In this document: positions 5,300-5,360 of the stretch, piece after piece
Numbering within the stretch: the first letter of the stretch is position 1
Layout of the letters: each line of letters opens with the position of its first letter
NCBI GenBank assembly: GCA_035546635.1
Contig: DASZWJ010000019.1
Coordinates: 229,386-293,385 of the forward strand
DNA: 64,000 nucleotides
Source of the DNA: Gammaproteobacteria bacterium
GTDB taxonomy: Bacteria; Pseudomonadota; Gammaproteobacteria; JAURND01
Direction of reading: 5' to 3'
The notes under the pieces: model-generated
Told to the model about the DNA's origin: nothing
Databases searched by the model: none
Seen by the model: the letters and a program-made list of their open reading frames with translations, nothing else
Position numbers and translations under genes: made by a program

Positions 5300-5360
5300 C
5301 ACTTAACCTCTCCCATCCCACAAGGGGATTCCCTTCGGTCATAGACGGGAGAGGTTAAAG
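5300..5360. repeat. Palindromic element family A2 (33-nt core ATCCCRCAAGGGGATTCCCTTCGGTCAYAGAC closed by CTCTCCC/GGGAGAG outer stem)
   Basis: The outer stem cttaacctctccc…gggagaggttaaag is near-perfect. The core is almost identical to the copy at 26111..26186. Confidence 0.75.

Follow-up and report, generated by a model that had tools for sequence, protein, structure and literature searches.

A2 hairpins in a gammaproteobacterial genome resemble composite REP/MITE-like palindromes whose 26-nucleotide tip module may be mobile

The element termed A2 is present twice in the window, by which we mean the whole 64-kb stretch of DNA that was analyzed, and both copies occupy short spacers between genes of the same strand. 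Copy 1 (5301–5361, plus strand) starts 21 nt past the stop codon of a methyltransferase/kinase-like gene (3712–5280) and ends 96 nt before ftsK (5457). Copy 2 (26110–26187, plus strand) starts 26 nt past the stop codon of an unannotated 484-aa gene (24630–26084) and ends 134 nt before msbA (26321), with msbA-lpxK downstream. The gene upstream of copy 1 has a paralog at 55198–56775, and the two encode a methyltransferase domain fused to a protein kinase-like domain (522 and 525 aa). Both copies had been recognized in a sequence-only reading of this DNA and are real, although their ends had to be corrected to the coordinates given here.

Neither copy is accompanied by a terminator-like site or a sigma-70-like consensus; the 3′ flanks read GTTCTTAAG and TGGAATG and contain no U-tract terminator. 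Rfam returned no match at the gathering threshold for either copy, the sole match at that threshold being a TPP riboswitch (14810–14916), and at E ≤ 10 copy 1 gave only weak miRNA-precursor look-alikes. Direct repeats of the kind left by target-site duplication flank neither copy, the arms themselves serving as inverted repeats, and no transposase or RAYT was found among the window ORFs of at least 150 aa.

Each copy consists of two arms that enclose a 32-nt core, ATCCCRCAAGGGGATTCCCTTCGGTCAYAGAC, which occurs exactly twice in the window, both times on the plus strand. A third copy was not found in the window even with three mismatches allowed, and dinucleotide shuffles are expected to contain none. 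Copy 1 comprises a pyrimidine-rich 5′ arm of the A1 type described below (aCTTAACCTCTCCC, 5301–5314), the core as an apical insert (5315–5346), and a 3′ arm with one bulged A (GGGAGAGGTTAaAGT, 5347–5361). Within its core lies a 26-nt module with one change from the consensus (TCCCaCAAGGGGATTCCCTTCGGTCA, 5316–5341), whose internal hairpin is AAGGG-GATT-CCCTT. The corresponding parts of copy 2 are a 5′ arm (TAAGCAGG-CACTTCCCTTCTCCC, 26110–26132), the core (26133–26164), the module, here with the consensus sequence that metagenome and phage contigs also carry unchanged (26134–26159), and a 3′ arm (26165–26187). The cores had been described as 33 nt long with 31 identical positions; they are 32 nt long and agree at 30 positions, with two differences. 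Beyond the module, the two cores have six more nucleotides in common, namely an A preceding it and YAGAC following it, and outside the 62-nt element the flanks have nothing in common.

The stems had been reported as perfect helices of 14 and 22 bp, and self-complementarity is indeed evident in both. However, the copy 1 stem is interrupted, with 10 bp, a 1-nt bulge (A), and 4 bp (another palindrome count gives 12 uninterrupted), whereas copy 2 forms 23 uninterrupted Watson–Crick pairs. The predicted folding energies are −27.8 kcal/mol (z −3.7) for copy 1 and −61.1 kcal/mol (z −12.0) for copy 2. Not one of the 37 stem pairs in the two copies is a G-U pair, and therefore both DNA strands fold equally well.

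According to the sequence-only reading, the closing stems were unrelated in sequence. When the 5′ arms are placed in register (CACTTAACCTCTCCC versus CACTTCCCTTCTCCC), however, they are identical at 12 of 15 positions, a repeat search reports arm plus core as a 53-nt repeat at 91%, and both arms belong to a family of hairpins that we call A1. The arm differences amount to three base pairs (C-G/T-A, A-T/C-G, and A-T/C-G), all three of which are compensated, and copy 2 carries eight additional outer pairs (TAAGCAGG/CCTGCTTA) that have no counterpart in copy 1. The compensatory covariation that had been noted is thus present, but its basis in the two loci is only three pairs in two sequences.

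The A1 family has the consensus CACTGTAa-yCCyTCTCCC / GGGAGArGGr-tTACAGTG, usually with a 5-nt CTTGT loop, and is abundant in the lineage. At least four members lie in the window and more in relatives, and all A1 and A2 hairpins are intergenic. The window examples are a hairpin that has no core (ACCCCCTCTCCC-cttgt-GGGAGAGGGGAT, 701–729, plus strand, with flanks CACTGTAA and ATATAGTG); an A1-like hairpin downstream of ftsK, identified by direct reading, with one T-G wobble (CCCTCTCTC-ctcgt-GGGAGAGGG, 7894–7916, plus strand); a hairpin downstream of rdgC on the minus strand (8015–8038; CCCTCTCCC-ACAAG-GGGATAGGGG on the plus strand), which has TCCCACAAGGGGAT in common with the A2 core; and a hairpin with a perfect 16-bp stem and a different outer sequence (CTTTTTTCCTTCTCCC-cttgt-GGGAGAAGGAAAAAAG, 14652–14688, plus strand). 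The last of these is enclosed by CTTCTTACAGCC/GGCTGTAAGAGG and followed by a 22-nt tandem duplication (AAAAAGCTAGGGCTGTAAGAGG twice), and this region (14636–14726) sits just upstream of the TPP riboswitch.

Relatives were found through homologs of MsbA and FtsK: L102/L105, L107, L103, and L003 (86%, 74%, and ~70–72% identity), 86% being the closest in the protein collection. ThiC with 10-kb flanks as query recovered distant taxa only, the best of them L003 at 76% identity. Among the ~170 kb formed by the window and its relatives, 16 centers of the form CCC-RCAAG-GGGG are present, and all but the two A2 cores are A1-type hairpins. Most A1 hairpins display the CUUGU loop in the sense of the preceding gene. 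The family nevertheless occurs in both orientations, and at one orthologous A1 site (window 14652 versus L105 21033) the loop orientation is opposite.

Within the family, the seventh pair from the loop is dimorphic (CCTCTCCC/GGGAGAGG versus CTTCTCCC/GGGAGAAG), and the A2 copies take opposite sides, such that the C-G/T-A difference between them is the A1-family dimorphism. When 11 stems were aligned, both A2 stems included, the covariation score was 0.226 versus 0.118 in shuffles (0 of 500 reached it), and all slid registers scored lower; pair 7 of this alignment is UA in six stems, CG in four, and UG in one. The covariation is therefore real, but it is a property of the repeat family and is not peculiar to the two A2 loci.

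The window is rich in further long perfect palindromes. The unit (CT)GTCATCCTGAGCGnAAGCGAAGGATCTCC is arranged in REPIN-like inverted doublets with perfect stems of 20–24 bp at 46930–47034, 49816–49912, and 29071–29116; they occupy the hisD-hisC and hisH-hisA spacers of the his operon and a site after lpxK, and in L102 (19172–19254) a 31-bp palindrome is built from this unit. A CGTC-tagged REP family (…CGTCGTCCCGCGGCTTGTCCGCGGGATCCAGA…) is represented in the window (35487–35541), L102 (1777–1865, as a 33-bp perfect palindrome), the ends of L108 and L109, and L105 (9890–9925), and Logan contigs of the source organism end in it. The window member is a 24-bp palindrome with the related center TTCCGCGA-cttga-TCGCGGGA. 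Finally, a 60-nt direct repeat, GTCGCAGGAAAGCGAAACTTTAACTTCCCTGTCAACTGGATCCCGACTCCCTGCCGGGAC, is present at 37501–37560 and 63479–63538, 26 kb apart and at 85% identity, and partly overlaps a palindrome at 37492–37545. Logan contigs of the source organism also break off inside both A2 cores, as they do inside A1 and REP hairpins. These breaks fit multi-copy repeats, although as weak evidence, and yielded no further A2 copies.

Insertions into A1 palindromes are seen in the relatives. The L102 segment 5415–7325 holds an IS110-family transposase gene (PF01548/PF02371, 5720–6799) between the arms of a long A1-family palindrome (GTGCCGCGCCTTACCCCTCTCCCTAACCCTCT … AGAGGGTTAGGGAGAGGGGTAAGGCGCGGCAC), and the gene abuts a truncated A1 hairpin (…CTTGCGGGAG joined to ttgcta), an arrangement that looks like palindrome targeting in the style of IS110/IS1111. 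At L103 8735–8870, an insert with inverted ends of its own (TTGTTGAATAATTC … GAATTATTCAACAA) interrupts an A1 hairpin and itself holds another A1 hairpin. The sequence CCCACAAGGGG occurs three times in the nested palindromes of L103, and L105 (20975–21100) contains a composite with TTGTTGAATAA ends, as in L103. Together, the IS110-family gene of L102 and the nesting in L103 suggest that the tips of A1 palindromes are recurrent insertion points in this lineage.

Collection of copies by covariance model, as proposed in the sequence-only reading, extended the pair no further but separated its parts. The A2 model, built from the two copies (62 positions, 23 pairs), was run over 249 kb comprising the window, the relatives, and the module-bearing loci described below, and gave full-length matches only at the two A2 loci (94.9 bits for copy 2 and 88.9 bits for copy 1, or 95 and 89). 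Matches to the core alone (model positions 17–47 or 19–44) fell in the unrelated contigs L083–L092 and L100, and matches to the stem alone, with the core deleted, fell on A1-type hairpins, for example at window 14653–14687 (the 14652–14688 hairpin, 31.6 bits) and L102 18743–18778. A2 thus combines a palindrome specific to the lineage with a 26-mer of wide distribution.

The central 26 nt of the core, TCCCGCAAGGGGATTCCCTTCGGTCA, are found exactly in gut Bacillota-like contigs, in a Rhodanobacteraceae contig, and in other soil and phage contigs. A 21-mer common to both A2 copies, CAAGGGGATTCCCTTCGGTCA, occurs in eight metagenome contigs that represent five distinct contexts, as well as in IMG/VR phage contigs, and the match extends to TCCCGCAAGGGGATTCCCTTCGGTCA in metagenome and phage contexts alike: the 5 nt upstream of the 21-mer agree with TCCCG at 23 of 30 positions (P ~4e-9), and sequences farther out are unrelated. 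The module is predicted to fold as a small bulged hairpin, CCG-C-AAGGG-GATT-CCCTT-CGG, and its position 5 varies (G/A/C) without compensation. Its first 13 nt equal the center of A1 hairpins, and part of the similarity to A1 may therefore reflect common descent rather than insertion.

Outside phages, the module resides in short spacers between housekeeping genes. A gut contig pair (L088/L083 and L085/L089; GC 53–61%, with Bacillota-like neighbor genes) carries it directly after rpiB, inside a multi-hairpin element of ~165 nt bounded by GTCATTGCGA…TCGCAATGAC (L088 4120–4290 and L085 10335–10500, both on the minus strand). This element has a predicted fold of −99.9 kcal/mol (z −11) and no Rfam match, and between L088 and L085 one helix is fully compensated (ACCAGTC/GACTGGT versus GACAGTG/CACTGTC) with the 26-mer invariant. 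The unit (CT)GTCATCCTGAGCGnAAGCGAAGGATCTCC of the window doublets resembles the GTCATTGCGA… ends of this gut element. L087, a Rhodanobacteraceae contig whose RidA shares 87% identity with proteins of Frateuria, Rhodanobacter, and Dyella, carries the module between spoT and ridA, antisense to both, and the soil contig L086 carries it between the ABC permease and ATPase genes of the same transporter.

Three phage contigs (L091, L092, and L100, of which L092 encodes a portal protein and a terminase) hold the module within intergenic repeat units (L092 13236–14210; L100 5840–6560 and 10440–10500; L091 2980–3080), probably antisense to the neighbor genes. The units have the form …CCGCCGCAGCGG..GGCTCCTTnnnnAAGGAG-CTG-hairpin-CTGAGGATkG, lie in tandem between small genes, and match no Rfam family. 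Five of them contain exactly 26 nt between the AAGGAG that ends the first part and the CTG, and four lack these nucleotides. Both subtypes of the unit are found filled and empty, and the boundaries cannot be shifted; the filled and empty units set the ends of the module exactly. No target-site duplication or common target sequence is apparent at the module copies in the contexts compared, and no inverted duplication flanks the 26-mer in other genomes.

Other searches with the module were unproductive. Rfam gave no match at the module in other loci, a scan of genome contigs with the 32-mer written with R/Y gave none, and blastn against 72,556 plasmids and 50,697 phage records gave no full match, a result that speaks against a common insertion sequence of which the module would form the end. 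Weak Rhizobium blastn matches upstream of a DUF736 gene (CCCGCAAGGGGTTTCCCTTCG, E ~1–3) were treated as chance, a looser 18-mer scan of IMG/VR added only chance matches, mostly in coding sequence (L095–L099 and L101), and a literature search for the module sequence retrieved only NF-kB oligonucleotides. Several known classes were considered and set aside, namely a hammerhead-like reading prompted by CUGAGGA in the phage unit, an attC site, an invertase crossover site (12-2-12), an rRNA or tRNA fragment, and an IS3-type terminal repeat; for none of them were the defining features present or an Rfam model matched.

The closest relative (86% FtsK identity) is syntenic throughout mfd-miaB-phoH-ybeY-MTase-ftsK-rdgC, and a comparison of empty and occupied sites, as had been suggested, was possible to a degree: A2 is absent from its MTase-ftsK spacer, but this spacer could not be aligned, and the place that A2 has in the window is taken there by a different palindrome, a fragment of the CGTC-tagged REP. 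The 74% relative (L107) lacks the whole methyltransferase/kinase-like gene. At the msbA site of the 86% relative the upstream gene is not homologous, and the spoT-ridA spacers in relatives of L087 are not alignable. An empty A2 site of the form CTCCC-AYAGAC-GGGAG was found neither in the window nor in the relatives, and insertion into a pre-existing hairpin is, for this genome, what we infer.

Taken together, these data are best read as indicating that A2 is not a conserved RNA gene but a composite REP/MITE-like palindrome tipped by a small portable module that resembles the small dispersed repeats of cyanobacteria. The earlier picture of a constant core on a compensated stem holds, although neither of the explanations offered for it, a structured RNA or an inverted target duplication, fits well. 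Specifically, we consider it somewhat probable (about 55%) that A2 is a composite repeat acting at the DNA level, with an A1-type REP/MITE-like outer stem and a 32-nt tip that contains a portable 26-nt module. The order of events that we infer is that the module would have entered the apical loop of an A1-type hairpin, and that the composite, or the tip alone, would then have reached the second site by an enzymatic or an enzyme-free route. If the tip moved alone, conversion between hairpins through their shared CTCCC/GGGAG arms is one possibility. The routes to be considered would include two independent tip entries, copying by way of the shared arms, and spread of the whole composite with the arms drifting under correction; given the six nucleotides shared beyond the 26-mer, two insertions and a single origin from which the complete composite spread are equally likely. 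Perfect pairing of the arms could be kept by intrastrand template switching (correction and extension), by a need for the hairpin in propagation, or by both. As for any role as RNA, the hairpin may, like REPs, be co-transcribed at the 3′ end of the upstream gene and could stabilize the transcript.

Mobility of the 26-nt module, as judged from sequence comparison, is supported by one clear series of filled and empty sites and by several unrelated contexts. Note that precise deletion, or conversion between tandemly arranged paralogs, could also account for the filled and empty phage units. A broader proposal, which is conceivable but which we regard as doubtful, is that TCCCGCAAGGGGATTCCCTTCGGTCA is an ultra-small, protein-less mobile module, akin to a small dispersed repeat outside cyanobacteria, that would insert precisely into hairpin-rich intergenic repeats and would have moved between Gammaproteobacteria, gut Bacillota-like bacteria, and phages, A2 being the case in which it landed in the loop of a REP-like hairpin.

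The converse view dispenses with mobility altogether: A2 would have arisen from A1 hairpins by local rearrangement or partial duplication, its two copies would derive from a segmental duplication, and the 26-mer in other taxa would be an independently conserved functional motif, for example a protein-binding hairpin. This view draws on the presence of TCCCRCAAGGGGAT in both the A2 core and the A1 hairpin at 8020, on the resemblance of CTCCC-ATCCC to a tandem 5-mer, and on the nested and duplicated A1 arrangements in L102 and L103. We nevertheless find it unlikely, given that identity at 26 of 26 positions with Bacillota-like, Rhodanobacteraceae, and phage sequences in unrelated contexts is hard to obtain by convergence and that a segmental duplicate is not evident in the A2 flanks, which share nothing outside the 62-nt element.

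That A2 is a structured RNA, either a cis-regulatory element of a 3′ or 5′ UTR or a small RNA, with a selected helix and a loop that serves as a binding site, seems quite unlikely. Its position on the strand of the flanking genes and 21–26 nt after a stop codon, its very stable folds, the compensation of all three stem differences, the CUUGU loop that most A1 hairpins present in the sense of the preceding gene, and the invariance of the 26-mer where flanks vary, as between L088 and L085, would all be expected of such an RNA. However, A2 is not kept at the orthologous site of the 86% relative, its 37 stem pairs include no G-U pair, there is no Rfam match, and neither terminator nor promoter consensus accompanies it; even at E ≤ 10, Rfam gave nothing beyond the look-alikes mentioned above. 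The stems also come from a repeat family that is found in both orientations, with an orthologous A1 site whose loop is reversed in a relative, and the core is found elsewhere without such a stem, antisense to its neighbors in L087 and probably so in phage, with a position 5 that varies uncompensated.

An insertion mechanism that duplicates flanking target DNA in inverted form, so that each copy gains its own perfect stem, is very improbable, for although copy 2 has eight extra outer pairs and perfect Watson–Crick stems are what freshly copied DNA should show, the two arms share homology over their inner 15 nt with one another and with core-less A1 hairpins, the palindrome therefore exists as a family independent of the core, the phage, gut, and soil copies of the 26-mer show no inverted flanks, palindromes are abundant without the core and the core without the palindrome, and the extra pairs, the only part that could reflect palindrome extension, are explained equally well by extension through template switching (PMC8794818).

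There is nothing unusual about A2 as two REP-like hairpins, and a conserved loop on a compensated stem in a repeat-rich genome is no evidence for an RNA gene. The hairpin pair is thus ordinary, whereas its tip module may be mobile. The module is the interesting part, being a 26-nt noncoding sequence that is identical across distant bacteria and phage and that is present or absent as a clean unit. If mobile, it would rank with the smallest known units of mobile DNA, would extend the poorly understood phenomenon of small dispersed repeats beyond cyanobacteria, and would offer a defined sequence with which to seek the machinery that moves such elements.

In integron attC sites, R″ (RYYYAAC) and R′ (GTTRRRY) enclose an imperfect palindrome that adjoins a gene cassette. 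Copy 1 contains ACTTAAC…GTTAAAG, which we attribute to chance, its last base being wrong; copy 2 has neither motif, and the neighbors are core genes. MITEs combine terminal inverted repeats with a target-site duplication, and A2 does not show that combination.

Template switching can create and repair perfect stems, make them grow outward, and introduce multi-base compensatory changes (PMC8794818). Like the products of such quasipalindrome correction, the A2 stems are free of G-U pairs and one of them, that of copy 2, is longer, and no selection is needed to explain them. Template-switch mutagenesis is, however, a mutational process and not an element family, and it leaves the conserved tip and its presence in other phyla unexplained. 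Among described elements, QMITE2 of Coxiella burnetii measures 150–190 bp, has terminal inverted repeats and direct repeats of 7–11 nt, and contains an internal REP that is the target of IS1111 (PMC5896051). A2 is likewise a gammaproteobacterial palindrome of intergenic regions or 3′ UTRs that is also found outside its own species, and the IS110-family gene inside an A1-family palindrome of L102 parallels the use of QMITE2 as a landing site for IS110/IS1111. Compared by description only, A2 differs in its length (61–78 nt) and in having no direct repeats.

REP, BIME, and REPIN sequences are repetitive extragenic palindromes mobilized by RAYT Y1 transposases. Like them, A2 is a short, GC-rich, imperfect palindrome in an AT-richer genome, and A2 and A1 are multi-copy, extragenic, and located just after genes and inside operons, with hairpins that carry compensatory changes. 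Such changes are common in REPIN hairpins (PMC3116915), and REP palindromes are marked on one side by the tetranucleotide GTAG or CGTC (PMC3733652). Unlike a REP, A2 bears no GTAG or CGTC tag at the foot of its palindrome: GTAG does not occur, CGTC occurs only on the minus strand at the core/stem junction (between GAC and GGG), 5 nt from the inner hairpin, and module copies elsewhere lack this CGTC. A separate CGTC-tagged REP, CGTCGTCCCGCGGCTTGTCCGCGGGA, is present in the lineage. A2 further differs from REPs and REPINs in that no RAYT lies among the window ORFs of at least 150 aa, and from REPINs in that their arms are conserved and their spacer variable, whereas in A2 the tip is identical at 30 of 32 positions and the 5′ arms at 12 of 15.

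Small dispersed repeats of 21–27 nt (SDR1–8) are reportedly found in Nostoc and its relatives, placed precisely within other repeats and hairpins (Elhai et al. 2008, Genome Res 18:1484), and are said to be confined to one cyanobacterial subgroup. The module, which we liken to them by description only, differs in its presence in Gammaproteobacteria, Bacillota-like gut bacteria, and phage. It nonetheless resembles them in its length of 26 nt, in encoding no protein, in leaving no obvious target duplication, and in occurring in nested arrangements. The SDR5 module inserts precisely within another repeat (PMC4390886); no empty version of the A2 hairpin was seen in the window or its relatives, but in the phage repeat units of L091, L092, and L100 the 26-mer is a precise indel.
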